IMG/VR virus record: IMGVR_UViG_2778261121_000001
Location: 1-55,913 of that record
From: a virus
Lineage: Duplodnaviria > Heunggongvirae > Uroviricota > Caudoviricetes
DNA: 55,913 nt
Reading direction: 5' to 3' (one strand)
Position 1 is the stretch's first letter; each line of letters starts with the position of its first letter. The notes beneath the pieces are model-generated. The model did not search any database. It worked only from the letters and a program-made list of their open reading frames with translations, and was not told the DNA's origin. A program made the position numbers and the translations under genes. Of this stretch, positions 1,437 through 38,474 are shown one piece after another.

Positions 1437-1456
1437 TAAACAACTTGTTTTCTTAT
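1437..1456 (-). promoter_or_regulatory. conserved 5'-leader motif TAAACAA-S-TTGTTTTCTTAT (instance 1)
   Basis: Near-identical copies at 15756-15775, 16484-16503, 26710-26729 and 38441-38460, each 5-45 nt upstream of a start codon. Confidence 0.5.
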
Positions 1457-1585
1457 GTGCTTTATTATCTCAAACAACAAAACACAGAAAACAAATTGTT
1501 TTAGGGTTTGTGCAAATCAGAAGGTATTGCGTCTATATGAAAATGCCCAGCGTATTGCTGGGCATTGTGAAGAATGGTTGTTTAG

Positions 1586-3619
1586 TTACTTAACTTGGTG
1601 GCCTGGTTTAGCACCAGCATCCGGGCTTAACAGGAAGATATCTTTCCCACCGGGGCCAGCAGCCATCACCATACCTTCGGAGATACCGAAGCGCATTTTA
1701 CGCGGAGCCAGGTTAGCCACCATAATGGTGTGACGACCAATCAGTGCCTGTGGGTCTGGATAAGCAGAACGGATGCCTGAGAAGACATTGCGTTTTTCAC
1801 CACCTAGATCCAGCGTCAGACGCAGCAGTTTGTCAGAACCTTCAACAAACTCTGCGTTTTCAATCAGCGCCACGCGCAGGTCAACTTTGGCGAAGTCGTC
1901 AAAGGTGATAGTTTCCTGAATCGGGTCGTCAGCCAGTGGGCCAGTTACCGGTGCGGCTGTGGCTTTCACTTCTTCTTTGGATGCTTCCACCAGTGCTTCA
2001 ACCTGCTTCATATCGATGCGGTTATACAGTGCCTTGAACGGATTCACTTTATGGCCCAGCAACGGTTGCTGGATGCCATCCCAGGTCAGTTCTGTATTCA
2101 GGAATGCTTCTGCACGTTCAGTCAGTTTCGGCAGTACCGGCTTCAGGTACGTCATCAGCACGCGGAACAGGTTAATGCCCATAGAGCAAATCGCCTGCAG
2201 ATCGGCATCGCGTCCTTCCTGCTTCGCCACCACCCACGGAGCCTGTTCATCGACATAGCGGTTAGCCAGGTCAGCCAATGCCATGATTTCACGGATAGCT
2301 TTACCAAATTCACGGCTTTCCCATGCTTCGCCAATCACTTCAGCGGCATCAGTAAAGGTTTTGTACAGTTGCGGGTCAGCCAGTTCGCTTGCCAGCACGC
2401 CGTCAAAACGCTTGTTGATAAAGCCTGCATTACGGGAGGCCAGGTTAACCACTTTGTTCACGATATCGGCATTCACGCGCTGAACGAAATCCTCCAGGTT
2501 GAGATCGATATCATCAATGCGCGAAGAGAGTTTCGCAGTGTAGTAGTAACGCAGGCTGTCAGCGTCAAAATGATTCAGCCAGGTGCTGGCTTTAATAAAG
2601 GTGCCGCGAGACTTGGACATCTTCGCGCCGTTCACCGTCACATAGCCGTGAACAAACAGGTTGGTCGGCTTGCGGAAGTTGCTGCCTTCCAGCATGGCAG
2701 GCCAGAACAGGCTGTGGAAGTAAACAATATCTTTACCGATGAAGTGGTACAGCTCGGCGGTGGAGTCTTTCTTCCAGTATTCATCGAAGCTGGTGGTATC
2801 GCCGCGCTTGTCGCACAGATTCTTGAAGGAACCCATGTAGCCAATCGGCGCGTCCAGCCAGACGTAGAAATATTTGCCCGGCGCGTTCGGAATTTCAAAA
2901 CCGAAGTAAGGCGCATCGCGGGAGATATCCCACTGTTGCAGGCCGGATTCAAACCACTCCTGCATTTTATTTGCCACCTGCTCCTGCAACGCACCGCTGC
3001 GGGTCCATGCCTGCAACATTTCGCTGAAAGAAGGCAGATCAAAGAAGAAGTGTTCGGAATCACGCATTACCGGGGTAGCGCCAGAAACCACCGATTTCGG
3101 CTCGATCAATTCAGTCGGGCTATATGTTGCGCCGCAGACTTCACAGTTATCGCCGTATTGATCTGGCGCTTTACATTTCGGGCAGGTGCCTTTTACAAAA
3201 CGATCCGGCAGGAACATGCCTTTTTCCGGGTCGTACAACTGAGAGATAGTGCGGTTTTTAATAAAACCGTTCTCTTTCAGGCGAGTATAGATAAGCTCAG
3301 ACAACTGACGGTTCTCTTCGCTGTGCGTCGAGTGATAGTTGTCATAGCTGATGTTAAAGCCTGCGAAATCAGTCTGGTGTTCCTGACTCATTTCGCCAAT
3401 CATCTGCTCCGGTGTGATACCAAGCTGCTGTGCTTTCAGCATGATCGGCGTACCGTGGGCATCGTCGGCACAGATGAAATTAACCTCGTGGCCGCGCATT
3501 CGCTGGTAACGAACCCAGACATCAGCCTGGATGTGCTCCAGCATATGGCCGAGGTGGATTGAGCCGTTAGCGTACGGCAGCGCGCACGTCACCAGAATTT
3601 TCTTCGCGACTTGGGTCAT
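1586..3619 (-). CDS. metG: methionine--tRNA ligase
   Basis: Translation from [29 protein letters not shown] to the C-terminus matches E. coli MetG almost residue for residue; start set at the MTQ methionine rather than the longer track ORF. Confidence 0.95.
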
Positions 3620-3776
3620 AGTAGGCATTACTTCTTTGTAGTGAAAAGGGGCTTGATAGTAACAAAATGGCCTTATGTCTGCCATGTGATAACAGCATTT
3701 CTCATAAATGATTAAATGTCGTAGCTGGAGTACACTACAAGGCGACAATTGCGCAAATTAAAATAAAGGAGACGGG

Positions 3777-4877
3777 ATGAGCGAGTCCAAATCGCCGGAT
3801 GCCCTGAGAGCAATGGTAGCCGGTACGCTGGCTAATTTTCAGCACCCAACCCTGAAACACAACCTGACTACGCTTAAAGCGTTACACCATGTTGCGTTGA
3901 TGGATGACACACTGCATGTCGAACTAATCATGCCTTTCGTGTGGAATAAGCCTTTTGAAGACCTGAAAGAGCAATGTAGTGGTGATCTGCTCCGTATCAC
4001 TGGCGCAAAGGCTATTGACTGGAAGCTGTCGTACAACATTGCCACGCTTAAGCGCGTCAAAAACCAACCAGGCATTAATGGCGTTAAGAATATTATCGCC
4101 GTAAGCTCAGGCAAGGGCGGTGTAGGCAAATCGTCCACAGCAGTAAACTTGGCACTGGCGTTGGCTGCTGAAGGTGCGAAAGTTGGTATTTTGGATGCCG
4201 ATATCTACGGGCCATCAATTCCAACCATGCTGGGCGCGGAAAACCAACGTCCAACCTCACCAGACGGTACTCACATGGCACCTATTATGTCTCATGGCCT
4301 GGCAACCAATTCTATTGGTTATCTGGTCACCGACGACAATGCGATGGTGTGGCGTGGACCGATGGCTAGCAAGGCGCTGATGCAGATGTTGCAGGAAACA
4401 CTGTGGCCTGATCTGGACTATCTCGTTCTCGATATGCCGCCGGGCACTGGTGATATTCAATTGACGCTGGCGCAGAACATTCCTGTAACGGGTGCTGTGG
4501 TGGTAACTACGCCGCAAGATATCGCGCTGATCGATGCGAAGAAAGGCATTGTGATGTTCGAAAAAGTCGAAGTGCCGGTACTGGGTATCGTCGAAAACAT
4601 GAGTGTGCATATTTGCAGTAACTGCGGTCATCACGAGCCAATTTTCGGCACCGGTGGCGCAGAGAAACTGGCCGAGAAATACAACACGCAGTTGTTAGGC
4701 CAAATGCCACTTCATATCTCACTTCGTGAAGATCTGGATAACGGAACACCAACCGTTATTAGTCGTCCAGATAGCGAATTTACGGCTATTTATCGTGACC
4801 TCGCAGATCGCGTTGCTGCCCAAATGTATTGGCAAGGTGAAGTAATACCTGGCGAAATCGCATTCCGCGCAGTGTGA
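3777..4877 (+). CDS. apbC: iron-sulfur cluster carrier ATPase ApbC/Mrp
   Basis: Walker A SSGKGGVGKSS plus CxxC near the C-terminus; strong similarity to E. coli Mrp; divergent from metG as in enterobacterial chromosomes. Confidence 0.93.
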   Translation: MSESKSPDALRAMVAGTLANFQHPTLKHNLTTLKALHHVALMDDTLHVELIMPFVWNKPFEDLKEQCSGDLLRITGAKAIDWKLSYNIATLKRVKNQPGINGVKNIIAVSSGKGGVGKSSTAVNLALALAAEGAKVGILDADIYGPSIPTMLGAENQRPTSPDGTHMAPIMSHGLATNSIGYLVTDDNAMVWRGPMASKALMQMLQETLWPDLDYLVLDMPPGTGDIQLTLAQNIPVTGAVVVTTPQDIALIDAKKGIVMFEKVEVPVLGIVENMSVHICSNCGHHEPIFGTGGAEKLAEKYNTQLLGQMPLHISLREDLDNGTPTVISRPDSEFTAIYRDLADRVAAQMYWQGEVIPGEIAFRAV

Positions 4878-4914
4878 TAAAAAGGCGGTGCATTGCACCG
4901 CCTAATCAGTTCTC

Positions 4915-5304
4915 CTACATCACGGGACAATCATCAAACTCGCCACTTCTTGCGTCGTTGATAATGTGAGTGATCACACCAAACACGGCATTGCTGCCCG
5001 TGCATCCATCGTCATCCTTTGGCAATGCTTCCTTCTTACCGGTTCTTAAATCCTCCAGATGCTGACGTGGGTACTTCCGGTATCTTTTTACGCGATATTC
5101 CCCATCCAGAGCGCATACAAGCAGAGAACCATCAACCGGGGTAAGTGAGGAATCGACCACCAGCAATGCACCCTGTAATATTCCCTCACGATGATGACTA
5201 TCAGCTGCCCTCATGAAGTAGGTCGCTGAAGGATGTCTAATTATCTGCTGATCAAGAGAAATACGGCTCTCAGCATAATCCGCCGCAGGAGAAGGGAAGC
5301 CCAT
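4915..5304 (-). CDS. UmuD'-like protein (pre-processed UmuD homolog, HumD-like)
   Basis: Begins GFPSPAADY, the position of the UmuD autocleavage product, and aligns with the UmuD C-terminal domain; LexA box immediately upstream. Confidence 0.7.
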   Translation of the reverse strand: MGFPSPAADYAESRISLDQQIIRHPSATYFMRAADSHHREGILQGALLVVDSSLTPVDGSLLVCALDGEYRVKRYRKYPRQHLEDLRTGKKEALPKDDDGCTGSNAVFGVITHIINDARSGEFDDCPVM

Positions 5305-5320
5305 AATACTCGCCTCTTAG

Positions 5321-5340
5321 TACTGTATACACATACAGTG
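5321..5340. promoter_or_regulatory. LexA (SOS) box
   Basis: TACTGTATACACATACAGTG fits CTGT-N8-ACAG, 17 nt upstream of the 4915..5304 start codon. Confidence 0.65.
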
Positions 5341-5528
5341 TATATTGAAGCTATATATTTTTGAACTCTATCTCTTAAAAAAGATGTTAATAAGATGCTA
5401 ACTATTGAAAGGCATAAATATATACAATTCAAACAAACGTTATTTTTAACAAATTTTTTCTTCCCATTGACTTTTTCGAACGCCTTGTCAGGTCTAAAGT
5501 GCGCAGAAGTCACTTTTTCCTTCCTGAG

Positions 5529-5537
5529 TTATCCACA
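5529..5537. promoter_or_regulatory. DnaA box (TTATCCACA)
   Basis: Perfect consensus 9-mer in an AT-rich ORF-free region; the same TTATCCACAGGC 12-mer recurs at 35078. Confidence 0.4.
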
Positions 5538-5635
5538 GGCTTATGCACTTGCATGAAAAATCTATTCACACTATCTTAATTCGCAAGACACTGATGTTGC
5601 AGTATTGAGGGTATGTTGGGTTAAAAATAGACATT

Positions 5636-5666
5636 AAAAAGCCCAGTTGACTAGGCTGGGCTTTTT
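5636..5666. terminator. bidirectional intrinsic terminator-like hairpin
   Basis: AAAAA-GCCCAG-loop-CTGGGC-TTTTT. Confidence 0.5.
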
Positions 5667-5966
5667 AAAAGGAAACAGAGTTTGCGGCTCTGTTCCTGAG
5701 CCATAAGTATCTGGCGACTGAATTAAGATTAACCGAATGTACTGGATTCATCAAGAAACGTTGAGTGGTCATACTAGGTAATAATGACCATTTACTAAAC
5801 ATCGTTGTTCTCAAAGAAGATTTAAGTCCAGGTTTTTGGTGACTCTAAAACCTTACCTTAACTCGAAATCGTGCCGTAAGTATCTGGCGACTACAGATAT
5901 TGCAACTGCAAAGGCAAGCCCAAAGGTATTTGCAGCTAGGCGCGATAAAACTAAGTGAGGCCTGTT

Positions 5967-6050
5967 ATGGTTAACTTACTGTTCAAAATCGTGCCGCCGA
6001 TGTTCGCGATTATCAAAGCGATCATTGAGTACGTAAACCAGCGTCCATAA
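5967..6050 (+). CDS. candidate small hydrophobic peptide (27 aa, MVNLLFKIVPPMFAIIKAIIEYVNQRP)
   Basis: ATG with GAGG 8 nt upstream; followed directly by a strong plus-strand terminator; below the ORF-track size cutoff. Confidence 0.25.
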   Translation: MVNLLFKIVPPMFAIIKAIIEYVNQRP

Positions 6051-6064
6051 CGCTAGTTGCTACA

Positions 6065-6096
6065 GGCCCCATCAAGAGCATGGGGCCTCTTTATCG
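6065..6096 (+). terminator. intrinsic terminator
   Basis: GGCCCCAT-loop-ATGGGGCC followed by a T-rich run. Confidence 0.55.
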
Positions 6097-6105
6097 TACT
6101 ATTGC

Positions 6106-6771
6106 TTATTTTTTACGGACTGAGTTGTTCACTGCTCTGGCAATTTTCTCCCGCAATTGCTGCGCTCCGTGGTACTGAACCGCAATATCCCGCAACTCGT
6201 TCACCAGTTCTCTAATCTGGTGATCTTTAAGCTCATTATTTGGGTGATGGGTAACAACTCTGGTTAATTCACCCTTGTCTTTTGCTCTTACGTATGCAGC
6301 TCTTGTGCATTCGACCCATGTATTACCGCCTACATTAACTTCGTAGATTAGGCTGGACTTATCTATCAATTCGGAACAAATACGGGCCGTGGTCTGGCAA
6401 CTAGAGCATTCGCAGTTATCGCGGAAACCGTGGTCTACTGGCTTCGGTTTCACATCATCAACTTTTTCTACCCTATTGGAATTTAAATACTTCGAAGCCT
6501 TGCTATGCCAATCGCTGGTTTTAGGATCTTGTCCATCCATCAAACGCCAGGCTTCAGCGATTAACTCATAACTAGTGACTGTAGCTTCCTGCGCATCACC
6601 AATAAGTCGTGTAATCTCTCTTTCAAGCCGACCGCCTAGCTCTGTTTTAGTGCAATGTTCTGACCAATCGCCAGCCTCAAGCAGCGCGAGAATGCTTAAA
6701 ATATCGTCCAATAGATCAGTGGTATTATCGACTTCCTTCTGAAACTCACCGGCTACTGATTTATGCATCAT
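6106..6771 (-). CDS. hypothetical protein (221 aa)
   Basis: ORF in track; first of a tightly packed run of minus-strand genes with overlapping stop/start codons. Confidence 0.5.
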   Translation of the reverse strand: MMHKSVAGEFQKEVDNTTDLLDDILSILALLEAGDWSEHCTKTELGGRLEREITRLIGDAQEATVTSYELIAEAWRLMDGQDPKTSDWHSKASKYLNSNRVEKVDDVKPKPVDHGFRDNCECSSCQTTARICSELIDKSSLIYEVNVGGNTWVECTRAAYVRAKDKGELTRVVTHHPNNELKDHQIRELVNELRDIAVQYHGAQQLREKIARAVNNSVRKK

Positions 6772-7421
6772 TCGTCATCCTCATCCGAGTCATCCTCATC
6801 ACAGGATGAGAGTAGTGGGTTAGTCATTCGCCCTACTTGAGTGGCGTAGCCACGCCGACAGAGATTGCGCAGCACACTGTATATTTCGAACATCTCGGTT
6901 CGTTCATCGCCAACATCAAGCTCAGATGCTATAGCGTGGCATTCAGTCGCGAGAGCCGATATTTTCTGAAATAACTCTGCATTATTCACTGTTCGACTCC
7001 TGCGGCGTTCTGGTAGTGGCATCCAGTGTGTGACATTGCTAATCAGACCATATTCATTAGTTTGAGGATGGTTGCCGTTATCGTCTCCGTATTTAAGACT
7101 CTCCATAAAGCCATAATGCCTATCACCATTAACGCTCACAAAGCCGTAATAAGCAGGTATAACGCCGATCTCACACGTAACCAGTAAAGGAAAACTAGTT
7201 CTCCAATTTAGCTCGCCAATTACAGGCATTCGCTCACTACAGCTTATCCAACCATCCTTAGATGCGGCTGTATTGGCATAGGCCTTACGGTGCTTCTGTA
7301 GCTCTGCTGCAATCGCTCTCACGACTTCAACTGGTGCCCTTGCAGCAAACTCAATGTTGGTGATCAGCTCATTAAGATATTTCTCGCTTGGGTAACATTT
7401 CTTATTGTTAACGGTGGTCAT
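6768..7421 (-). CDS. phage protein with a DUF551-like THWMPLPE motif and acidic C-tail
   Basis: ORF in track; motif recalled from phage DUF551 proteins, recognised by eye only. Confidence 0.45.
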   Translation of the reverse strand: MTTVNNKKCYPSEKYLNELITNIEFAARAPVEVVRAIAAELQKHRKAYANTAASKDGWISCSERMPVIGELNWRTSFPLLVTCEIGVIPAYYGFVSVNGDRHYGFMESLKYGDDNGNHPQTNEYGLISNVTHWMPLPERRRSRTVNNAELFQKISALATECHAIASELDVGDERTEMFEIYSVLRNLCRRGYATQVGRMTNPLLSSCDEDDSDEDDE

Positions 7422-7606
7422 TAGGCAGCTCTCTCAACAACAAGCAATTCGTCGTAGTCATAATCAGTTTCGGAACCATCCGTACCGAACAGAGTCACTT
7501 TGTCATCTTCCATCCAAAAAGATTTAACCGCACATTGTTGACCTTTAGATGTTATGAGCACATCACCAGGGATTACGTCTTCAGCGCGAACTTCTAGTGT
7601 TCTCAT
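7421..7606 (-). CDS. hypothetical protein (61 aa)
   Basis: ORF in track, stop/start overlap with neighbours. Confidence 0.4.
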   Translation of the reverse strand: MRTLEVRAEDVIPGDVLITSKGQQCAVKSFWMEDDKVTLFGTDGSETDYDYDELLVVERAA

Positions 7607-8133
7607 CGTGCTGACCCCTCTTTGGTTAAAATGCCTGCTGCAATGCTGTTTATGATGCTGTCAGTGCATGGAGTAGAAAGCTGGGCATCTCCAGCAATTT
7701 TCATGACCTCAACATCCGCATATCGAATACCGAGGTGTATCAGACCGGCTATACCTGACTTAAGTCGAACATTTTCCATAAACAGATCTTTTTCCCGCTG
7801 TTTAGCGGCTTCCAACTCCATCGACAATTTTTCCAACTGCTCTTTATGCTTCTTGTATTCCTGATACGCGTGCCAAGACTGACCTTTGCGCACACTATCA
7901 GTGATATCAGCAACCTGCTCTGGTGTTAGCGTGGTCAGTGGCTGTGCTGGAAAAATCATCACTTGCCCGGCATCCCAATCAAAACCAGCCTGAATTGACT
8001 GAACCTCAACTGATGGTGTTGAACCGATGCGACCAGGCGAATGAACAACGATCGTTACATCCATATCTCGACGATGGCTGTGGTTGTTGGACAAAATACG
8101 ATTCACCAACTCAGAAAATTTGGAAAATTTCAT
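7603..8133 (-). CDS. hypothetical protein (176 aa from the MKFSKF start)
   Basis: ATG at 8131-8133 with GAGGG Shine-Dalgarno and ATGA overlap with the upstream stop; the longer track ORF to 8262 would overlap the upstream gene. Confidence 0.45.
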
Positions 8134-8453
8134 GTTGATCCCTCTTTCTCTCCCCGGATAATTCTGTTGCACACATCCACACACTCGTCGCAGATGAAAA
8201 CGGCGTCCCCAGCAATTAACTTTTTGACGGCGTACTGGGATTTGTTGCAGAAGCTGCAACAAAGTGTTCGCCTGACTGATAAGGATGGAGCGCCAGATGT
8301 CAGCCGCTCCATATCGTTCTTGCGACGCAATATCACACGGCTGAACTCAACCAGTTTCTCCGGGGATATCTCCTCCTCCGTAGCGAGCGTCTCTAGTCGT
8401 TCGAGTATGTTGAAGGCTTTTTCCTGGGTAATAGCAGAATGCGATGTGGTCAT
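8130..8453 (-). CDS. small protein with a ClpX-type C4 zinc-binding domain
   Basis: [34 protein letters not shown] closely resembles the ClpX N-terminal zinc-binding domain; start set at the MTTSHS ATG with AAGGAG Shine-Dalgarno. Confidence 0.55.
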
Positions 8454-8454
8454 C

Positions 8455-9177
8455 TCACTCTCCTTTGATGCGAATGCCAGCGGCGCGGGAATCATTCCAT
8501 CGCTTTACTTCTTCACGAATTACGTCAATGCATTCTTTCGAATCCATTAGGTAATCTTCATCAAAAAGACGTTCCTGTTCGTTTTCTATCGCAACAATGA
8601 TTGCTTCAACTAACTTTTGTGCCTGAGAACCACTTTCTAACTCTGCTATGCGCTTACTTCCATCCGCGATTACTCCCTCGTAATATTCACGCTGCTCGTT
8701 GAGTTTTGATTTTGCGGCTTCCAACGCCGCAACCAATTCGTCTACAGTTCCGGCAGCTTGCAGTGCGTAATCGGTAATAGACATCTCATGATCAATTTCA
8801 GTACCGTTCTCATTAGTTGAGGTGATAGCAAAATAATCAGAGTCGATTTCGTTATCAGCTAAGTGGCGTAGCGTATCGGCAACAAGCTGACCGTTTTCGA
8901 TTAACAGCTTCCCTACCGTTAGCGCAATATCCTCGTTCTCCTGGTCGCGAGATTTGATGTATTGCTGGTTTCTTTCCCGTTCATCCAGTAGCGCCAGCAC
9001 GGTTTCTGGTCCGGCCAGAATTTTGAAGGCGTTGAGCGCATCAATATCAACACCGCTATCTTTAAGTTCCTGCTCGCTTATCAGATCATCATCAACTGGC
9101 AACATTAACAGGCGTTCCATTGCCGGAATTGCACGCTCTGCCGCCTCACGCAGTGCCTGATAGTTAATTTTGGTCAT
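8455..9177 (-). CDS. hypothetical acidic protein (240 aa)
   Basis: ORF in track. Confidence 0.5.
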
Positions 9178-9178
9178 A

Positions 9179-9478
9179 TCACATCACCCTGAATCCGTTG
9201 CATTTACGTAAAAAATCGCAGATATAGCCCTTCATTTTTTCGTGCCAATCTCGATCATTCCCATTGCACCAACCATCAGGTGGAGTCCAGTTTTCTATCA
9301 GAGCAGCCATTTTCTTTGCTTTTGCAGGAGTAGCTGTTGCGGTATCGCAGTAATGACGAGTGTCGATCAACGTATCCATACCATCGATATCAAGTACGCA
9401 AAACCATGTGTGATTCGGCATTTCAACAGATGGTATTTGTTGCCCACGTCGACGTTTATCAATAAGACATACAGTCAC
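9179..9478 (-). CDS. hypothetical protein (99 aa)
   Basis: ORF in track. Confidence 0.45.
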   Translation of the reverse strand: MTVCLIDKRRRGQQIPSVEMPNHTWFCVLDIDGMDTLIDTRHYCDTATATPAKAKKMAALIENWTPPDGWCNGNDRDWHEKMKGYICDFLRKCNGFRVM

Positions 9479-9981
9479 TGGTTGCCTCCTTCACGTAGCT
9501 CGGCGGCAAAAGCTACTGCGTGATCATGATGTTCAAGTGTGTATGCACACTCCGCAAACATCTCCACGCCCTGCGCACGTACTTCAGCCAGAAAAGCGTC
9601 GGTGGCTGGAGTTTCTATGCACTGCATTTCATGCAATGTCTGCATGTCCATAAAATCCCCGTCAGGCTCTGTGATAGTGGCGTTATATGCCGAGTAAATT
9701 TTTGACGCTTCATGTGCCAGTTCCGCAGCCTTAGATCGCAATGCCACATTCTCCGCCGCTAATGCGTCTCTCTGCGCCCGCAACTTCTCAATTTCGGCAG
9801 CCATGTAGTAACCAACCATAGCGAAAGTGGCGAAAGGGTAGTCAGAATCATCAGGAGATACGGAGGCCATTAGCAGACCATCGTGCATGTTCTGGCTTCC
9901 ATCAGTGATGGATACCGCATAAGAATCGCTGGTTTCCCGTTTATACAATACGACGACCGGGTTCTTGATTTTCTCTCTCAT
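9475..9981 (-). CDS. hypothetical protein (168 aa)
   Basis: ORF in track; overlapping stop/start. Confidence 0.45.
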   Translation of the reverse strand: MREKIKNPVVVLYKRETSDSYAVSITDGSQNMHDGLLMASVSPDDSDYPFATFAMVGYYMAAEIEKLRAQRDALAAENVALRSKAAELAHEASKIYSAYNATITEPDGDFMDMQTLHEMQCIETPATDAFLAEVRAQGVEMFAECAYTLEHHDHAVAFAAELREGGNQ

Positions 9982-10523
9982 TACGATGCCTCTAACTTAT
10001 CTAACTCTTTCAGCCCTTCACGTACCGCGTTCACAATGCGTTCCAGATACTGGTATTTCGGGTTTGGTACCGTTGGCCAGTCGGCATACCACGGATCATC
10101 ACCAAAGAGATTCAGCAGTTTGTTACCGACGCCGAAACAACAGCAGCTTTCTTTTACGTCATCGGCGTTTTCCGCCTCGTCCCACATTTCACGAGCCAGT
10201 ACGGCGTCGATTTCTCTCTCTCTTCGTAACTTTATGATTTCTGACTTCACGAAAAGCAGATTTGCATCGTTGTCATCGTCGACCGTGCTTCGCAGTTGAG
10301 AGTCGAAATAGCCGATTAGATACTCGTTGCTGACCCGCTTAATGAACGTCTGCACATCATCACCGCCCATAGCAAACCAAGCCGCAGTCCACGCTTTTCC
10401 GTAGCAGATGATGGTGATTCTTCCCTTACCAGGTTCGTAGTTTTCAATCATCACTCGAACCGGATCGAGGCGTTCCAGATCCGTCAGCACAAAGGAAAGA
10501 ACATCTATTTTTTCGACCTTCAT
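9981..10523 (-). CDS. hypothetical protein (180 aa from the MKVEK start)
   Basis: ATG at 10521-10523 with GGAGG Shine-Dalgarno and ATGA overlap with the upstream stop. Confidence 0.45.
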   Translation of the reverse strand: MKVEKIDVLSFVLTDLERLDPVRVMIENYEPGKGRITIICYGKAWTAAWFAMGGDDVQTFIKRVSNEYLIGYFDSQLRSTVDDDNDANLLFVKSEIIKLRREREIDAVLAREMWDEAENADDVKESCCCFGVGNKLLNLFGDDPWYADWPTVPNPKYQYLERIVNAVREGLKELDKLEAS

Positions 10524-11161
10524 GCAGCCTCCCACGCGCTCCAGATCAGCGATTTGTGTTTTTCATAACGTTTGATGTGTACCGGTTTCAGAAGCGCAAT
10601 ACCTTCAGTGACTTTCGCCATTGCGCTTAATAGCAACGGGTGTTCTATACCTATCCTCTCCATGTACTCGACAACATCAGCGTTGGCACCAATCTCTTTG
10701 CCGTGAAAGAGTACGTCCAGCATCAGTTCTTTCTCTGCGAGGTAGACAGCTGAAAACTCGGGATCGCGACTCACGATAGAAGAGGTATTGTCGAGCAGGT
10801 CAGCCAGCTTGATCATGCGCGTCTGCATGTCGAGATTTTGCTCCAGCTCCCGGACATTGATGATGAAACGCTGTATTCGATTGCCGTCTTCTGGCCTTGC
10901 AATGTTGGTCAGAGCCTGAACCATTTCAGCTACGCGCTCACCGAAGTGATCACGAACCATCTCTATGGTTACATGGGTGTCTTCGACCACATCATGCAGA
11001 AGCGCCGCGATTTGCATCTCCACGGTTCCGTCATGCAATGCAACAATCTCTCGGACAGCAACCGGGTGGTTGATGTAGTCTTCGCCGGTATATTTTCTTT
11101 TCTGACCAACGCCACCATGAGCGCCAGCGGCGAACATATGAGCTTCGGAAATACTAGACAT
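10520..11161 (-). CDS. HD-domain small alarmone hydrolase (SpoT/Mesh1-like)
   Basis: RelA/SpoT-type HD motifs (HDVVEDT and the N-terminal H...HP region); 213 aa with no synthetase domain. Confidence 0.6.
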   Translation of the reverse strand: MSSISEAHMFAAGAHGGVGQKRKYTGEDYINHPVAVREIVALHDGTVEMQIAALLHDVVEDTHVTIEMVRDHFGERVAEMVQALTNIARPEDGNRIQRFIINVRELEQNLDMQTRMIKLADLLDNTSSIVSRDPEFSAVYLAEKELMLDVLFHGKEIGANADVVEYMERIGIEHPLLLSAMAKVTEGIALLKPVHIKRYEKHKSLIWSAWEAA

Positions 11162-11280
11162 TCTTAACTCCGTTGTTTTCTAGTTGTGGTTATTTTCACA
11201 AATAAGAAAAGGTAGAAAACAATTTATTTAAGGCCACAACTTATGGCCTTTATTTATTCATGCCGAAGGATTTGTAGCGT

Positions 11281-11661
11281 CTAATTGCCGGATAAAATGG
11301 GGTGAGGTGCTTGCCAGTAGGCTCCACCGGTCCATGTGAACCCCATGCGAATAAGAGTGTTTATTGCGGCTTTGGTAGACTCCGATTCGACACTGGCTTT
11401 TCGAAACTCTTGAACCTCTTTCGCCAACTTGTATGTAATTGTGCAGGGGACGATTGCAGCCCAGCCTTTCTCATGACTGTTAATGACCATCTGGATGTGG
11501 CCATCCAGAATAGGTTGATTAGGCATGTTATTGAAAATGTCTGCCTGTTTTTGAATGTGAAGAAAAAGCCTTGCCAGCTCCATTTGCTCACTACGAGACA
11601 AGGGATTATCAAGAGGGCTTTTTGCAAAAGCGGCTATACGCTGTGCGTCAATGCCAAACAT
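11281..11661 (-). CDS. hypothetical protein (126 aa)
   Basis: ORF in track. Confidence 0.45.
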   Translation of the reverse strand: MFGIDAQRIAAFAKSPLDNPLSRSEQMELARLFLHIQKQADIFNNMPNQPILDGHIQMVINSHEKGWAAIVPCTITYKLAKEVQEFRKASVESESTKAAINTLIRMGFTWTGGAYWQAPHPILSGN

Positions 11662-12365
11662 CAGCGCACCTCACCATCTTTATGGCTGGACTTAACTTCC
11701 GCCATTAAATGTCTGACGTAATCGACAAGAGAGCCGCCTGGTGGAATCTGGCATTCCTCGACTAACTGGAAGTAGATATCCGCTGCATTACGTGTATTGC
11801 TACCTGTGCATATTTTTTCTTCACGAAGAGCATTACGTTCGTTGATCAAACGAACGCACTCGCCGTTACGCTGCTCCACAACGGCCTCAAGTTCTGCGAC
11901 GCGTTCACCTGGCGTCTTACCTTCTTTGCGTTGGATGGTAACGACGAAATCGCCAATTGCAGGGACGTTGTAATCCAGCTCAAGGTAGTTTTTGGCACCG
12001 CTGCGGACGAACTCACCCGCGAACATGGTAGCGAACATCGCAGAGGCCACTTCGCCGTTGAAAAGTGACTCCAGATCTAACGGAGTCCCAGCAGCAATAG
12101 CCTCTTTTGCTGTATCCATTGCATCCATGAACCGATCAAACTCACTAGCGCGCTTTTCCAGGTCTTTCCATTGCTCGCTCCAACGTTTGGCAACGAAGTC
12201 TATGAATGTTTTCGCGGATTCATCAAAATTCCCCTCAAACTTAACGATGCCTTTATCAATAATGATCTGGCCTACCGCATCCTCTGCATAACCTTTCAAT
12301 GTAAACTTGAAAGGAAAATCGGAATGGCCTGTGACGTTAAAATGCTCTAACTGGAGGTTGCTCAT
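11661..12365 (-). CDS. hypothetical protein (234 aa)
   Basis: ORF in track; start in the conserved GAAAAACACATG context. Confidence 0.5.
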   Translation of the reverse strand: MSNLQLEHFNVTGHSDFPFKFTLKGYAEDAVGQIIIDKGIVKFEGNFDESAKTFIDFVAKRWSEQWKDLEKRASEFDRFMDAMDTAKEAIAAGTPLDLESLFNGEVASAMFATMFAGEFVRSGAKNYLELDYNVPAIGDFVVTIQRKEGKTPGERVAELEAVVEQRNGECVRLINERNALREEKICTGSNTRNAADIYFQLVEECQIPPGGSLVDYVRHLMAEVKSSHKDGEVR

Positions 12366-12426
12366 GTGTTTTTCTCTTATCGTTTAGTTACTACATTCTT
12401 ACACAAATTAAGTAAGCATTTACCTA

Positions 12427-14112
12427 TCATTTAACGCGTTTGAAAACGTATACGCTGACTGTGATCCCGGTATCTTCAAACTCGTTGGTAAACGACTTCC
12501 CTTTGGCATAAACGTAATTATCCATCGTCATCCAGCTCAGGATTGGCGCAGTGCCCGGCAATACTGCTACAAGACGACCGCCGAGTTTCAGATGCCCCAG
12601 CGCAGCCAGCGTGTGCTCTCTATGACGACCAAGCGAGTACGGCGGGTTCATAACGATTTTGTCGAACTGATAACCTGCGTTGTCCTCAGACCACTTTATG
12701 AAGTCGCAGCAAATCGTGTTCGTATACCCTTTTCCACGCAGGATATCAGCGAAGAGAGGTGCGATTTCTATGCAGGTAACATCTTCCAGATCGGCGTTAA
12801 TATAGGCCAGAAGATCCCCACGTCCGGCTTGAGGCTCCAACAGCTTCTCACCAGGCTTCAATTCAGTGGCTCTTGCAACGTACTCAGCAATCAAGCGTGG
12901 GGTAGGGTAGAACTGGTGTGATTTTGTATCCGGTATTAAACCGGTAGCCACAATCGTATTTAGCGTATGGCCGATGTCATACGGGAACTGCCAGTGCTTT
13001 TTCTCCTGCACGCCGCCAATGAAGCTCAGTGTGCGCTCAAGCTCTTCCACCTGCGACTTCTGGAGAGCTGAATCAGAGAAGTACCATACGCCTTTGTCTT
13101 TGCTCAATCGCCCGTCACGAAGCGCAGTGCGAACCGGCACGGAGATCGTCTTCTGGATTAACCCGAACTGCTTTGGTGCCCGTGTTTTTGGCGCAGTTCG
13201 GCATGGCGCGGGAATTGCAGCAGGCATACTGTAAGCCAGCACCTCATTCAACTTCCAGGCCACGTCAGGATGTATTTCAAAGTGAACGTTGCCGTTCTTG
13301 AACATCTTCACGCGCATCAGATTTCCATCGACGTTCATCCAGTCACCGGTCTGGCAGTCGTTTGCCCGATACGCAGCTGATAGCACCTCAGCAGTGCGGT
13401 TGATGGTAATAAATTCTTTGTGCGCGAAGAAATGAAGCAAGACACGCAGATCGTCGATGTAGTCCTCTTTGCGATAGTTCACGCTAACGCTGTCCCGCCA
13501 GAAATCAGAAATGCAGTCAGCGATTATCAGACGCTCGCTGAAACCGTTTGTCTTATTTGTCTTGTGCGCAGGACTCAGCGCCTTAAACAAGCCATACACG
13601 CGCTCAGAGAGATATTTGTGCCTGTCATTCAGCAAATTAAGCATCGTGGGTATGACCGTTTCTGCTTTGAACTCCGGTACACCAACGAACTCTTTAACCT
13701 TCATCTGGTAGCCGGTTCTGTCAGTTTTGATGACTTCCTGTTTGCCCTCTATAAACTGCTCGCGCCACTCATCTCGACGGGAAGCTGGCATGATCAGCAA
13801 AACGTTAGTCATGTCCGTGACCTTCCTCCAGTACTCGGCCCAAATATTCTGTTTCACCCATTCCAGATCGACTTTATCCAACCAACCTCGATTTAAACGC
13901 GAGCGATCTTCATCTGGTCGATGGTTTAGTCTCAGCAGGCGATTAATCATGTTGTGGCGTTCGTCGCCATAAACGAAGTCGTGAACCTGATACATGAAGG
14001 CGATCTCTTTCTCGCACTCGGCCACAATTTCGTGGATGACGTTCATTTCCTGCCGATAGTCGATAGCAGTGTTTGAGTTGGCATCGTCGATGATGGAAAG
14101 GGCTGTATTCAT
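12427..14112 (-). CDS. DNA amino-methyltransferase (C-terminal NPPY domain) fused to a ~380-aa N-terminal domain of unknown function
   Basis: C-terminal FYPTP, LEPQAGRGDL (motif I) and NPPY (motif IV); N-terminal domain has no recognisable motif. Confidence 0.7.
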   Translation of the reverse strand: MNTALSIIDDANSNTAIDYRQEMNVIHEIVAECEKEIAFMYQVHDFVYGDERHNMINRLLRLNHRPDEDRSRLNRGWLDKVDLEWVKQNIWAEYWRKVTDMTNVLLIMPASRRDEWREQFIEGKQEVIKTDRTGYQMKVKEFVGVPEFKAETVIPTMLNLLNDRHKYLSERVYGLFKALSPAHKTNKTNGFSERLIIADCISDFWRDSVSVNYRKEDYIDDLRVLLHFFAHKEFITINRTAEVLSAAYRANDCQTGDWMNVDGNLMRVKMFKNGNVHFEIHPDVAWKLNEVLAYSMPAAIPAPCRTAPKTRAPKQFGLIQKTISVPVRTALRDGRLSKDKGVWYFSDSALQKSQVEELERTLSFIGGVQEKKHWQFPYDIGHTLNTIVATGLIPDTKSHQFYPTPRLIAEYVARATELKPGEKLLEPQAGRGDLLAYINADLEDVTCIEIAPLFADILRGKGYTNTICCDFIKWSEDNAGYQFDKIVMNPPYSLGRHREHTLAALGHLKLGGRLVAVLPGTAPILSWMTMDNYVYAKGKSFTNEFEDTGITVSVYVFKRVK

Positions 14113-14154
14113 AATTGCACCATTAAGAAGTGATTTGTTTAATGGTGCAATTAT
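14111..14154 (-). promoter_or_regulatory. perfect 16-bp inverted repeat sequestering the methyltransferase start codon
   Basis: ATAATTGCACCATTAA-N12-TTAATGGTGCAATTAT; the ATG at 14110-14112 lies at the base of the stem; no U-tract follows. Confidence 0.5.
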
Positions 14155-14215
14155 TTCAAAAATGAAAAGGTACTAAATAGAAATAAACAGGCAATCCTTC
14201 AAATAAAGGCATTGG

Positions 14216-14830
14216 CTAATCATACTTGGAGGTATTTATCACCAGAATTTTGTTTGTATAAATCTTCTTAATATCCCATGTGACATTACCGGAATACCAT
14301 TGACCGTTATATACTTGGTTTCCAGTTGCACCTGTCATTGTTACATAGACAGGTCTGTCGTAATCGGTTCGTCTATAGTTATATACTCCAACCATAGCAG
14401 GCATTACCGCACATGGATACCCCATATCTATTGTAAATTGAGGGTCAGAAATAGTGATAAGTTTCGCATCAAGGGGCATCATCTCACCGTGATACACCAT
14501 TGCGCCTGCGCTGTTATACATGGCAATGCCATAGCCAGAATGTGGTAACACCATATCAGAAAAAGCATAAACTGTTATTGTTCCGGGGCTACCATTTACC
14601 TGATGCAATCTGAGAGCATTGTATCCGTTACTATGCTCATGAATAAACATCATGTTCGCCTTATTACTGCTTTTTATGAAAAAAAAACATGATTTGTTTG
14701 ATGGGATTGATGTTTGAAAAACAGAACCTTTAGATGTAGACATTGTCCCTTTATTAATCAGATTTTGCGGAGTAAATTCTGGACTCATCCACAAACTTCC
14801 ATCTGATTGAGTAATTGACATCCCGAACAT
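14216..14830 (-). CDS. hypothetical protein (204 aa), AT-rich cassette gene 2
   Basis: ATG at 14828-14830 with GGGGA Shine-Dalgarno 2 nt after the upstream stop; visibly lower GC than its surroundings; contains a T9 tract. Confidence 0.4.
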   Translation of the reverse strand: MFGMSITQSDGSLWMSPEFTPQNLINKGTMSTSKGSVFQTSIPSNKSCFFFIKSSNKANMMFIHEHSNGYNALRLHQVNGSPGTITVYAFSDMVLPHSGYGIAMYNSAGAMVYHGEMMPLDAKLITISDPQFTIDMGYPCAVMPAMVGVYNYRRTDYDRPVYVTMTGATGNQVYNGQWYSGNVTWDIKKIYTNKILVINTSKYD

Positions 14831-14832
14831 AA

Positions 14833-15114
14833 TTATCCCCAGTATGTGTATATGTAAGAACCAAGCCCCGTATATAAATTTGACCAACTAACCGTATTTC
14901 CATTAATAGTAACATTTGGAACAGGTAAATTGATGTAGTTGTCGTTGTTAAGAGGCATTAATGACCACACGGCATGTAGTGATTTACCCGGTGGCGGATT
15001 AGAGTACGTCTTAGAGCCTGATGACGCCGTAAATCGATCAAGAAAAAAAATAGGTGTAAGGAAGCCAGTAACGTTAATTCCTTTATTGTTGTAAATCCCT
15101 GTACCGTATGCCAT
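14833..15114 (-). CDS. hypothetical protein (93 aa), AT-rich cassette gene 1
   Basis: ORF with AAGGATGA Shine-Dalgarno; AT-rich; contains a T8 tract. Confidence 0.4.
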   Translation of the reverse strand: MAYGTGIYNNKGINVTGFLTPIFFLDRFTASSGSKTYSNPPPGKSLHAVWSLMPLNNDNYINLPVPNVTINGNTVSWSNLYTGLGSYIYTYWG

Positions 15115-15168
15115 TTTTCATCCTTGTTTTTATCAACATAATATGGCCGATCATGCGGCCATATCAGA

Positions 15169-15738: not shown

Positions 15739-15877
15739 GTGTTTTTCCTAATGCTTAAACAAGTTGTTTTCTTATTGGCTTTATTGTGATGTGGCATAAA
15801 AGGGGAGCAAGCTAAACGTAAAGGTGCAAACTCTCTATTTCGGTCAACGAAACACAAGGGCCATTTGGCCCTTGTCA

Positions 15878-16461: not shown

Positions 16462-16554
16462 GTGCTTTCCTTTTGTTATTTGTTAAAACAAGTTGTTTTC
16501 TAGTTACATGAATTGCTTACGAAAAGACGGTCAATGCATATGCACTAACAACCG

Positions 16555-17256: not shown

Positions 17257-17401
17257 GTGGACTCCATCCAGTGTCAGAAAGAGTTGCGGCTGGCGATTGC
17301 CAGCCGCCTTTCTCGTTCCATCCTGGAACTGTGTCTTACCGACACATTGTCATCCTGACGCCGATAAGATACATGATTTAAAATGATAGGTAAACACTTA
17401 C

Positions 17402-19590: not shown

Positions 19591-19654
19591 CTTCTTTCTC
19601 GATAGGTAAGTGATTACCTATTTTTGCATTTGATTTTATGTCTGGCAATCAAAT

Positions 19655-19733: not shown

Positions 19734-19773
19734 TATAAAGCTCTCTATGGGCTTTATTTTCAGTAGGGGAACG

Positions 19774-24425: not shown

Positions 24426-24595
24426 AAAAACCTCACAAAGATAAGTAATTACTTATTCATCGTGTGAGTTTACATTCATTGAGAGAACAAGACCAGACAG
24501 ATAAAAAAATGGTGGCCATAGGCCACCAAAACGAATAGTCATTCCAGAGTTTTATTACGCATGTTAAATATACACAGATAGATAACTACCTACAA

Positions 24596-25542: not shown

Positions 25543-26685
25543 TTACAGGTCTGCAAACTGGCTTAGAGAAGCCTTATCCACGGTAGAATCGATCTGACCT
25601 ACCAGATATGTGCTTTGCTCTGCCTCTTGTGGTGCAATTTGCAGTGTGTCGGTTAACAACCACTTGTTCATCCAGACCAGCGGATCTGTGGTAACTTCTG
25701 GAAATAAAGCCTTCAGGCCAAGACGATTCATAGCCAGATTGGTGCGGTATTTTACATAGGTCTTCAGAATATCCGCGTTTAAACCAATCATCGAACCGTC
25801 TTTGAAGAGATAGTCTGCCCAGTTCATTTCTTGTTCGGCGACTGATTTCATGGTGTCGTAAATGACGTTTTCTTCATCAGCAGCAATCTCTTTCCACAAT
25901 AAGCCTTCGCGACCGGTACGCATGAAGCGGATCATGCGTTCAGTTCCTTCGCAATGCAGAGCTTCATCACGGGCAATAAAGCGCATAATTTTGGTGTTAC
26001 CCTCAAGCAACTTCCGTTCGCCAAAGGCAAACGTACATGCAAAACTTACATAGAAACGGATCGCCTCAAGCGCATTAATGGACACCAACGTGCGGAAAAG
26101 CTGACGGTGCAAAGGGTATGGCTCCCAGCCATATTCATTTACGTACAGACGTTCAAACTCTTTCTCACCTAACGACTGGCGCTCGCAGGTCATCCCATAA
26201 AGCCTGTCATATTCAGCAGAGATACTGATCGCTCGGTTGATGATTTCTTCATCCGTAACAATACCGTCAAAAACAATACTCGGATCGTCCACCATGCCAC
26301 GAATAATGTGGGTGTAGCTGCGGCTATGGATAGTCTCAGAGAAAGACCATGTTTCAACCCACGTTTCCAGTTCAGGAATAGAGATAAGCGGCAGAAGCGT
26401 TGCATTTGGGCTACGTCCCTGAACTGAATCGAGTAACGTTTGATAACGGAGATTGCTCAGAAAAATGTGACGTTCGTGGTCCCGCAGCTTCGTGTTGAAG
26501 TCGATACGATCACTCGAAATATCAACTTCTTCCGGCCGCCAGAAGAAAGACAATTGACGTTCAATCAACTTTTCAAAATCACGGTATTTTTGCTGATCGT
26601 AACGTGCCACGTTGACAGATTGTCCGAGGAACATAGGCTCTTTGGTTGCATCATTAGCACCCAAACGGAACGTTGAATATGACAT
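25543..26685 (-). CDS. nrdB: ribonucleotide reductase class Ia beta subunit
   Basis: 380 aa; resemblance to NrdB recognised by eye; conserved start context and 5'-leader motif. Confidence 0.85.
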
Positions 26686-26785
26686 GTGTTTTTCCTTTTT
26701 TGATGTGTTTAAACAAGTTGTTATCTTATGTGTTTAAACAAGGCTTACAAATCAAAGATAAGGTGGGGATATACCCCACCATATG

Positions 26786-37452: not shown

Positions 37453-37628
37453 GCTGCCACCTCTTTGATTACATCAAATGCTGAATTAAATACGAGCACG
37501 ATAGCCAAAGCGTTTATGACTACGTCGTTCACCGGGGAAAAGACTTTACGAATGACACCAGTGAAAATGCAGTCGATGACAAAAGCTATTGACACGATGA
37601 GCAACAAGTATTCAATAAAAATCTTCAT
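37449..37628 (-). CDS. candidate small membrane protein (59 aa)
   Basis: Hand-translated hydrophobic ORF with ATGA overlap to the downstream gene; no clear Shine-Dalgarno. Confidence 0.3.
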   Translation of the reverse strand: MKIFIEYLLLIVSIAFVIDCIFTGVIRKVFSPVNDVVINALAIVLVFNSAFDVIKEVAA

Positions 37629-37667
37629 GATAGGTAGATACTAACTTATATAAATTTTACTGTAAAC

Positions 37668-37943
37668 TCACTCAAAAGTGCTGATGCTTAGAATACGCTC
37701 AAGATGTGCGGCATCTTCATCACTGATTTGTTGAGTCTCTTCTACATACCAACAGTTGCCGTTATGCCAACAAACACCATCATCATCAACCATCACTGAA
37801 TCAGCGTCATGACCTGTATATTCAACGAGAATACGCTGGATCAGCGCGTCAATTTCTTCGTCGTTAAGGCCATCGGCTTTGACGATAAAAAGCGGAAATG
37901 CGTCATAGACAGTGCTGGTAACGATTCGAACTAAAACTCTCAT
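37668..37943 (-). CDS. hypothetical acidic protein (91 aa)
   Basis: ORF in conserved start context. Confidence 0.45.
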   Translation of the reverse strand: MRVLVRIVTSTVYDAFPLFIVKADGLNDEEIDALIQRILVEYTGHDADSVMVDDDGVCWHNGNCWYVEETQQISDEDAAHLERILSISTFE

Positions 37944-37998
37944 GTGTTTTTCCTTTTGTGGTTAGTGTTTACTTATTTTGTTAGTTATGAATAGGCGA

Positions 37999-38424
37999 TC
38001 AATCGTCTTGTTTAGGGAAAAACTGTTCAATAACTCTGTCAACGGCTGTGTCTATATGGAGTAGATGCCACACAACCATATCTTTGCTCCCCATGCCTTG
38101 TGTGAATATCACGTCATACTTACGCCATGCGCAGTGGAACCAATATGCTGAGTTATCAATTGGTAAATCCTCTCCCGCCTCTTTGAAGTATTTCAGCAGC
38201 ATTGCTTGCTCTGCCGTTGGCGTTGGACCTATTTCCTGAGCGTACATACGGATGAATCGCTGCCAGTCTGTCTCGTCGGGGGTTGGATCTGGTGGGGTCA
38301 TTTCTGCGATAGCGTTTCGTAGCTGATGCGCCCAATCAGGTTCAGGAAAGCCTTTTGCTACTTCATCATCAATAACATCCAGAGCCACGTTTGCGGCATC
38401 GTAGAGTTTCTTAATAGCTGTCAT
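37999..38424 (-). CDS. hypothetical protein (141 aa)
   Basis: ORF; 5'-leader motif at 38441-38460. Confidence 0.45.
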   Translation of the reverse strand: MTAIKKLYDAANVALDVIDDEVAKGFPEPDWAHQLRNAIAEMTPPDPTPDETDWQRFIRMYAQEIGPTPTAEQAMLLKYFKEAGEDLPIDNSAYWFHCAWRKYDVIFTQGMGSKDMVVWHLLHIDTAVDRVIEQFFPKQDD

Positions 38425-38474
38425 GTTTTCTTATCCTTTTAAACAAATTGTTTTCTTAATAAGATAATTGCGAT

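Follow-up and report, generated by a model that had tools for sequence, protein, structure and literature searches.

A 13-base palindrome recurring at promoters of SSU5-like phage-plasmids is a candidate DNA operator

In the plasmid-prophage P1, one operator sequence is scattered at many lytic, replication and accessory promoters, and a single repressor, C1, holds these dispersed promoters off by binding the 17-bp asymmetric sites as a monomer. The gp71 stoperators of L5 and Cluster A phages, tens of asymmetric 13-bp intergenic sites, block elongation in an orientation-dependent way at places away from promoters. Partition proteins that are global plasmid regulators as well include omega of pSM19035, KorB of RK2 and, with its sites, SopB of N15; the KorB operator of RK2 is a 13-bp palindrome, TTTAGCSGCTAAA, present at 12 sites. 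Here we analyze a 55,913-nt stretch of viral DNA (Caudoviricetes; IMG/VR record IMGVR_UViG_2778261121_000001, positions 1 to 55,913), called the window below, which is closely related to the SSU5-like phage-plasmid Cyrano. It carries repeated copies of a 13-base palindrome, AAACAAnTTGTTT, with a conserved left flank, positioned just 3' of promoter-like sequences. By analogy, the system resembles P1 C1 operators, L5 stoperators, and the KorB or omega regulons. Our literature searches found no earlier description of the motif and no account of lysogeny control in the SSU5-like group.

We favor the reading that a symmetric repressor uses the motif as its DNA operator, at the transcription start site and immediately beyond it, and give this an even chance of being right. 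A symmetric dimer encoded by the element would bind the palindrome and, at promoters with two copies, dimers would bind cooperatively across the core promoter. Binding would block RNA polymerase binding or escape, and replication, nucleotide-metabolism, early and packaging promoters would thereby be kept off during plasmid lysogeny. The data themselves establish the motif, how often and where it occurs, its conservation across lineages and the silence of the genes behind it in a lysogen; the DNA target, repression as the mode of action, and the start sites are the parts of this reading that we infer.

Over an 8-kb stretch, the window shares 99.6% identity with Escherichia phage Cyrano, which is the SSU5-like phage-plasmid pLF82 of E. 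coli LF82, and ∼76% with Salmonella phage SSU5 and with Klebsiella phage-plasmids. The bulk of the window aligns to Cyrano at 96–98%, with two stretches at 84–91% and several unaligned gaps; the alignment ends at 55027, and the sequences diverge beyond. Nearly all genes of the window are on the minus strand, so the motif as originally written must be read as its reverse complement. In gene orientation it is ATAAGAAAACAA-n-TTGTTTA, i.e. (C)A-AyAAGAAAACAA-n-TTGTTTA.

The original prediction, made from the window alone, placed five copies of the motif upstream of at least five genes, and all five copies exist. The 20-mer TAAACAASTTGTTTTCTTAT, with up to three mismatches allowed, has exactly five matches in the window; shuffles lead one to expect 0.01, and none of 100 shuffles reached five. 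The matches lie at 1437–1456, 15756–15775, 16485–16504, 26710–26729 and 38440–38459, at distances of 4, 17, 23, 24 and 15 nt, respectively, from the listed start codons. Three had been placed exactly, and the coordinates given for the copies before the TerB-like gene and the gene for a 141-aa protein were each shifted by a single base. A search for the 13-bp core, AAACAANTTGTTT, allowing one mismatch, gave eight matches versus 0.39 expected, the extra ones being at 1489–1501, 11217–11229 and 52851–52863, and a matrix scan added a half-site at 11163–11186. Beyond the five predicted copies, the window thus has two inverted upstream copies, one half-site and one weak site, and the gene set grows by an HD-phosphohydrolase-like gene (10520–11161) and a cobT-like gene (50723–52831). 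All nine palindrome centers are intergenic in a window that is ∼85% coding (P ∼3e-8); together with scans of the relatives (below), this bears out the enrichment upstream of genes on which the prediction depended. The window sites are as follows, where O1 is the downstream copy, O2 the upstream inverted copy, and scores come from a position weight matrix (PWM) scan.

1435..1458, minus strand, center 1444: O1, sequence ACATAAGAAAACAAGTTGTTTAGG, before the 82-aa DUF1380-like gene 1184–1432; score 33.1. GATAAT with TGn, at 1464–1469, ends 20 nt upstream of the center.
1481..1504, plus strand, core 1489–1501, center 1495: inverted O2 of the same promoter, 51 bp from the O1 center at 1444, with its TTGTTTTCT arm at the –35 position; score 20.9.
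11163..11186, minus strand, center 11172: half-site O1, CAACTAGAAAACAAC, followed by the Shine–Dalgarno (SD) sequence GGAG, before the HD-phosphohydrolase-like gene; score 13.0. TGtGAAAAT ends 20 nt upstream, and orthologous half-sites are present in SSU5 and Klebsiella.
11209..11232, plus strand, core 11217–11229, center 11223: inverted O2, 51 bp from the half-site at 11172, abutting the terminator hairpin (11230–11250) of the upstream operon; score 19.9.
15754..15777, minus strand, center 15763: O1 before the 189-aa gene 15169–15738; score 35.8. CACAAT ends 20 nt upstream of the center.
16483..16506, minus strand, center 16492: O1 before the TciA/TerB-like gene 16036–16461; score 27.9. TTGACC lies upstream and the –10 is poor.
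26708..26731, minus strand, center 26717: O1 in the nrdA–nrdB spacer, before nrdB 25543–26685; score 31.9. The left flank is TAAGAT in every lineage examined.
38438..38461, minus strand, center 38447: O1 before the 141-aa gene 37999–38424; score 31.4. AATTAT ends 17 nt upstream, and the 3' arm of the preceding terminator reads TTGGACGCC.
52848..52871, minus strand, center 52857: weaker O1, ACACTAGTAAATAATTTGTTTTCA, before the cobT-like gene; score 17.4. Orthologous cobT sites are stronger in SSU5, Klebsiella and pMT1 than in the window.

For comparison, full genomes of six elements were used: Cyrano, SSU5, the Klebsiella plasmids pJN2-26 and pRHBSTW-00636_4, Yersinia pestis pMT1, and Acinetobacter pPB364_1. 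pRHBSTW-00636_4 is the more divergent Klebsiella plasmid, with proteins 30–70% identical to those of Cyrano, and pPB364_1 is a relative from Acinetobacter baumannii (TerL 59%). Cyrano has 12 perfect AACAAnTTGTT palindromes, SSU5 has 13 and pRHBSTW-00636_4 has 19. PWM scans found 16–17 sites in Cyrano, SSU5 and pJN2-26 and seven in the phage-derived part of pMT1, versus just 0–3 weak matches in shuffled genomes, and copies per genome come to 16–19 in the four complete relatives (Cyrano, SSU5 and the two Klebsiella lineages). Sites recur at terS, parA, the gene for a DnaB-like helicase, cobT, nrdB, tciA and a series of small early genes; among relatives they occur at orthologous promoters and also at other ones. 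In an alignment of the nrdA–nrdB spacer the motif is the best conserved block, and the nrdB leader 3' of it varies, with 24, 31 or 62 nt to the ATG. One copy, at 87622–87645 of SSU5, is in a non-promoter position. A pattern scan of IMG/VR returned matches that were mostly single and probably due to chance.

An alignment of 52 unique strong sites showed how the motif is placed in the promoter. In 18 of the 52, the last base of a –10-like hexamer (at least 4 of 6 positions, including A2 and T6) is exactly 20 nt upstream of the palindrome center, and in 28 it falls within 17–23 nt, compared with 11.2 ± 2.8 (maximum 19) in shuffles. Both 6-bp arms of the core carry 1.5–2.0 bits per position and the central base 0.04 bits; T at –20 from the center carries 1.6 bits, and a conserved left flank, AAGA, breaks the symmetry. 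The layout of the clearest promoters is TTGAC/TTTTAC(gcc), ∼16 bp, (TGn)GATAAT, aACACC, then AACAAGAAAACAAnTTGTTTA. In the best-defined ones the –10 is GATAAT, TATTAT or GAAAAT, often preceded by TGn, the –35 is weak, and the motif begins ∼6–7 nt after the –10. Transcription is predicted to start at an A ∼12–13 nt before the center, which would put the palindrome near +13/+14, between the start site and the SD sequence in the best-defined promoters. Across all sites, 4 to ∼82 nt separate the motif from the ATG, in contrast to its fixed placement with respect to the –10. Promoters in the window were assigned from this multi-genome family alignment. Five of the seven O1 sites there have a –10-like hexamer, those at 16492 and 26717 being without one; at nrdB, the conserved TAAGAT of the left flank may itself be the –10.

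Nine promoters carry a second, inverted copy upstream, and in all nine measured pairs it lies exactly 51 bp away, center to center. The O1/O2 centers are:

Window: 1444/1495 and 11172/11223.
Cyrano: 93171/93120.
SSU5: 88376/88325 and 85659/85608.
pJN2-26: 24816/24765 and 28596/28545.
pRHBSTW-00636_4: 83709/83658 and 84910/84859.

The TTGTTTTCT arm of the O2 copies occupies the –35, and several O2 copies abut the terminator of the preceding operon. By their position, the O2 copies would not be transcribed from the promoter that each of them flanks. In front of terS, and of one Klebsiella gene, direct copies stand in tandem with a spacing of 25 bp. The arrangement recalls lac, in which the primary operator is just 3' of the start (O1 at +11) and an auxiliary operator is located upstream, and 51 bp corresponds to ∼4.9 helical turns, nearly a whole number. 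In contrast to lac O3, at 92 bp, the auxiliary copy here is far closer and overlaps the –35; looping or cooperativity is putative here, and no LacI-family protein was found in the element. Three other roles were discarded. A class II activator site is incompatible with the geometry, the center being just 11–32 nt from the start codon. The inverted copies do not serve divergent promoters, as they face a terminator or a convergent gene. And the motif is no intrinsic terminator: its stem is A/T-only and 5 bp long, and the true terminators beside some copies are separate hairpins.

Two of these promoters merit a remark of their own. The 82-aa gene (1184–1432) is not in Cyrano at this position (unaligned gap 1190–1434) and seems related to the DUF1380-like gene SSU5_104, judging from a visual comparison of N-terminal residues; the double-operator promoter cassette has been retained at this locus and the gene behind it exchanged. 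The terS leader (Cyrano L002:40-135; also SSU5 and pJN2-26) has one or two motif copies, 25 bp apart, then a conserved G+C-rich hairpin (AGAGCGC...GCGCTCT), then GTGTGTTTT. Preceding the late operon as it does, this hairpin may function in regulated termination or be a structure related to packaging.

Expression in the lysogen was assessed from RNA-seq values published for every Cyrano gene in an LF82 lysogen (PMC9928086, S1 Table). The median is 9.8, and the first gene behind each motif promoter, parA excepted, falls between 5.7 and 25.5 (PMC9928086): terS 7.1, the helicase gene 21.1, cobT 7.8, CYRAN_58 5.7, nrdB 12.9, tciA 7.0, CYRAN_87 7.1, CYRAN_101 7.5, CYRAN_105 12.8, CYRAN_106 12.2, CYRAN_110 6.7 and CYRAN_111 25.5. 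They are thus at or near background, with parA, at 49.8 or ∼5-fold background, as the exception. In the plasmid state, then, these promoters are off despite reasonable sigma-70 elements, which fits repression, the evidence being correlative. Since the genes behind the motif behave alike in the lysogen, a shared regulator is plausible. The proposal of a co-regulated gene set is supported in part, in that the motif is conserved, non-random and located before such genes; its scope changes, as the motif is linked to promoters rather than being a mere leader element, and covers ∼16–19 promoters per genome instead of five genes.

Cyrano has been reported to be inducible by ciprofloxacin. A canonical LexA box, CTGTATGTGTATACAG, is found at 5323–5338 of the window, just upstream of gene 4915–5304 (minus strand), which encodes an S24 peptidase domain only. 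The N-terminus of its product (GFPSPAADY) looks UmuD/HumD-like, and the gene is strongly expressed in the LF82 lysogen (148 versus the median of 9.8).

As in a P1 C1-like regulon, then, there are many intergenic copies, a fixed promoter position, dyad symmetry and targets that are off in the lysogen. What differs from P1 is the site itself, a 13-bp perfect palindrome at ∼+13 to which some promoters add an inverted copy over the –35. Annotations and domain searches, none of them aimed at C1, brought no C1 homologue to notice. L5 stoperators are similar in being short, 13-bp intergenic sites oriented with transcription that serve genome-wide prophage silencing; a stoperator of that type does not account for a site that is palindromic and has a fixed 20-nt offset from the –10 hexamer.

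The original prediction left open whether the motif is bound as DNA or RNA, and the evidence leans toward DNA. We favor DNA because the 13-bp core is symmetric; because inverted copies lie 51 bp upstream, outside the transcript of that promoter; because position is fixed relative to the –10-like hexamer whereas the distance to the start codon is not; and because no stable or compensated RNA hairpin is apparent. As RNA, the palindrome has a folding energy of just –0.7 kcal/mol, the folding of four of the five leaders does not exceed that of shuffles (z from –0.1 to +1.4), variant sites carry uncompensated C–A mismatches (e.g. TTATTT right arms), and there was no Rfam match at the gathering threshold. 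A structured RNA hairpin or riboregulator was rejected given the marginal energy, the lack of covariation and the lack of an Rfam match.

An unstructured RNA operator is another matter. FljA has been reported to bind an operator in the fliC mRNA and block translation, and T4 RegA represses translation of many early mRNAs by binding their leaders. By likeness to these, the leader AyAAGAAAACAAnUUGUUUA could be bound by a FljA-family protein, which would block translation and destabilize the mRNA as FljA does on fliC; a protein of this kind is encoded outside the window:

L003:15781-16302, minus strand: CYRAN_114, FljA-family protein (PF03614).

In both FljA–fliC and RegA the target is an A/U-rich leader segment just upstream of the SD/AUG, and here an A-rich and then a U-rich tract stands just before the SD sequence, a position within the transcribed leader provided that the –10 has been assigned correctly. 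Strong copies have the same orientation as the genes, and mRNA decay would also account for the low RNA-seq signal. The FljA-family protein (PF03614, E 1e-80) is present in all five motif genomes (Cyrano, SSU5, the two Klebsiella lineages and pMT1) and absent from the motif-free Acinetobacter relative. Its homologues are almost exclusively on contigs of ∼105–115 kb; a chromosomal homologue annotated as phase-1 flagellin repressor is ∼40% identical. An AlphaFold model (predicted local distance difference test, pLDDT, 84) shows two tandem units of a helix plus five strands and no helix-turn-helix (HTH), and its top PDB matches are all Hfq (probability 1.0, root-mean-square deviation ∼1.2 Å over 57 residues). 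The modeled Hfq-like fold would be RNA-binding and suited to A-rich and U-rich tracts, and tandem Hfq/Sm folds would explain the action of FljA on mRNA. Finally, the motif's central 8 nt, CAAGTTGT, recur in the fliC leader of Salmonella and Citrobacter, 8 nt ahead of the SD.

Other observations are hard to reconcile with an RNA operator. The inverted copies 51 bp upstream are outside the promoter's transcript, and, unlike in FljA–fliC or RegA, the motif stands at anything from 4 to ∼82 nt from the SD/ATG while its –10 offset is fixed. If TAAGAT is the –10 of nrdB, half of the motif there would be left untranscribed. In pRHBSTW-00636_4 the FljA-like protein has drifted down to 34% identity and the motif is unchanged. 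The fliC leader shares only the 8 nt: with the full 17-nt matrix it does not rise above background (17% of random 65-nt windows do as well), so that matrix scoring does not support it as a true instance of the motif, and the E. coli fliC leader lacks CAAGTTGT. The FljA-like protein could simply be a moron that silences host flagellin, and no RegA homologue was seen in the element. On balance we consider it rather unlikely, though worth keeping in view, that a FljA-family protein blocks translation at these leaders, and we are equally tentative about such a protein reading the motif as RNA, or as both DNA and nascent RNA. Were this true, SSU5-like phage-plasmids would silence ∼17 operons via a dedicated Hfq-like leader-binding repressor, and Salmonella FljA would have been domesticated from a phage global regulator. 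The distribution of the homologues suggests a family borne mainly by phage-plasmids, of which the flagellar phase-variation repressor is a member.

Common descent offers an explanation with no trans-acting factor. The motif might be the conserved core of a duplicated promoter cassette, consisting of the discriminator or initial transcribed sequence and an unstructured A-rich leader; this leader would favor promoter escape or ribosome loading, and the palindrome and its spacings would persist by descent and general constraints. Many motif promoters are indeed paralogous over ∼75 bp, sharing CCTTTTCTTATyTGaGATAATaACACC, the asymmetric AAGA flank falls at the predicted transcript start, and the failure of four of the five leaders to fold better than shuffles is in keeping with an unstructured leader. 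Yet complementary arms that are conserved to the same degree on either side of a free central base are the hallmark of dimer binding rather than of a leader. The palindrome is also found inverted upstream of the –35, beside terminators and in the non-promoter position of SSU5; it is kept at non-paralogous promoters (nrdB, parA, terS and cobT) across lineages with 30–70% identical proteins; and the cassette promoters are silent in the lysogen. We regard this explanation as distinctly unlikely.

Several points count against the DNA operator that we favor. A symmetric operator needs neither the asymmetric AAG-A left flank nor the co-orientation of strong sites with transcription. With many motif promoters being paralogous cassettes, the fixed spacings, 51 bp included, may partly reflect common descent. 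The start sites are predicted, the –10 is poor at the expected place for 16492 and 26717, and a simple sigma-70 scan of positions 1–20000 of the window called none of the promoters at 1444, 11172, 15763 and 16492. The published activity of the FljA family, binding to an mRNA leader, fits the position of the motif. And no cognate DNA-binding protein could be assigned among the candidates examined.

One of these candidates is an XRE-type HTH repressor:

53394–53780, plus strand: XRE-type HTH repressor gene, beside the integrase gene and expressed in the lysogen.

Homologues are present in Klebsiella (56%), pMT1 (65%) and the Acinetobacter relative (48%), and SSU5 is without the gene. This protein is unlikely to bind the motif, as its own control region lacks it and SSU5 keeps the sites without the gene, a further difficulty for the operator reading. 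The gene has a conserved palindrome of its own, GGTAAGnnCTTACC. At 53349–53362, ∼32–45 nt upstream of the gene, the palindrome is GGTAAGCACTTACC; its counterpart in the same place of pJN2-26 is GGTAAGTACTTACC, and pJN2-26 has six GTAAGnnCTTAC sites. Judging from its placement, GGTAAGCACTTACC is likely the XRE-type repressor's own operator, distinct from the motif studied here. CYRAN_43, by far the top-expressed gene in the lysogen (∼720-fold background), was rejected because it is not conserved, even in the window: unrelated sequence (55028–55913) stands in its place. ParB-like proteins were set aside for want of expression in the lysogen. Searches of PHROGs, Pfam and NCBIfam assigned no function to the remaining conserved small proteins.

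A partition protein deserves a closer look. CYRAN_29, a small protein encoded directly after a small ParA outside the window, might bind the motif, in which case the copies would be partition sites as well as silencers. The likeness to KorB lies in the same 6-1-6 palindrome geometry and in the spread over plasmid promoters that include the par promoter. The parA promoter has a high-scoring copy in all four lineages with this par operon, and it alone among motif promoters shows clear activity in the lysogen (CYRAN_29 at 89, median 9.8), as expected of autoregulation. CYRAN_29 is 91–93% identical in SSU5 and Klebsiella and absent from the Acinetobacter relative; its blocks RGK-IKSRTMS-EDE and FTRSDVIRAAI are invariant in a lineage where the protein is 49% identical, matching the unchanged motif. 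It has a weak, sub-threshold match to the model of the aCcr1 family, which we take to have a ribbon-helix-helix fold. Separate sites have a precedent in N15, with four separate inverted-repeat (IR) centromere sites (PMC7205306).

Against CYRAN_29, pMT1 has seven motif sites and neither this ParA nor CYRAN_29, which also tells against the DNA operator with CYRAN_29 as its binder. Only one palindrome, and no repeat array, is found upstream of parA. The monomer model is poor (pLDDT 64), and a ribbon-helix-helix fold found no support in structure prediction, Foldseek, a PDB profile search or an hhalign comparison with ParG. The element differs from the KorB, omega and SopB systems in that its ParB-like proteins are silent in the lysogen and its small par protein, a candidate DNA binder, is absent from pMT1. 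We judge CYRAN_29 a long shot as the binder; if it were true, binding by a par protein would couple plasmid segregation to prophage silencing.

Evidence of a different sort comes from the Acinetobacter relative, pPB364_1. It has no copy of the motif (best matrix score 13.6) and has 27 copies of a different palindrome, ATCAGTCAGTACTGACTGAT, at analogous intergenic places that include the nrdA–nrdB spacer. These copies overlap –10-like or spacer positions. One lies between a gene for an HTH regulator, 48% identical to that of the window, and a divergent early operon, and a degenerate copy is upstream of the pPB364_1 HTH gene. In its distribution, ATCAGTCAGTACTGACTGAT looks like a swapped-specificity counterpart of the enterobacterial operators, and the comparison suggests a conserved family-wide design, one palindrome at most operon promoters, in which the sequence has been swapped. 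Such a swap is the outcome expected of an operator that co-evolves with an element-encoded DNA-binding regulator.

Recruitment of a host factor, i.e. a transcription factor or nucleoid protein of Enterobacterales, would also predict a motif that is common to elements of Escherichia, Salmonella, Klebsiella and Yersinia and replaced by another palindrome in the Acinetobacter relative. To our knowledge, however, no E. coli consensus fits: the motif is unlike those of LexA, NrdR, PurR, KdgR, PhoP, IHF, Fnr, RcsB and other factors, a comparison in which no chromosomal regulon was searched. We think a host factor highly improbable.

A second palindrome, TAAGTAnnTACTTA, recurs in the same genomes, with seven or eight copies each in Cyrano, SSU5 and Klebsiella at orthologous places. 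It is located in the spacer between a TTGAAA-like –35 and a TATCAT-like –10, e.g. at tail genes, thyX, cobS and parB. The copies in the window, before minus-strand genes, are:

24442–24455: TAAGTAnnTACTTA, thyX.
39585–39598: TAAGTAnnTACTTA, gene for a 66-aa membrane protein.
50691–50704: TAAGTAnnTACTTA, cobS.

From its placement, TAAGTAnnTACTTA probably marks a second regulon with its own regulator.

SSU5-like phage-plasmids are common, as a TerL search returned ∼800 related plasmid records in Klebsiella, Escherichia, Enterobacter, Salmonella (pHCM2) and Yersinia (pMT1), and phage-plasmids as a class can carry resistance genes (PMC9600943). In this group, the motif would map one regulon of ∼16–19 promoters that spans packaging, partition, replication, nucleotide metabolism and many small early genes, and would serve as a simple handle for finding the master regulator. 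Taken with the second and third palindrome classes and the exchanged palindrome of the Acinetobacter relatives, it suggests that a few global operators may wire the genomes of this family, with specificities that changed between host clades.

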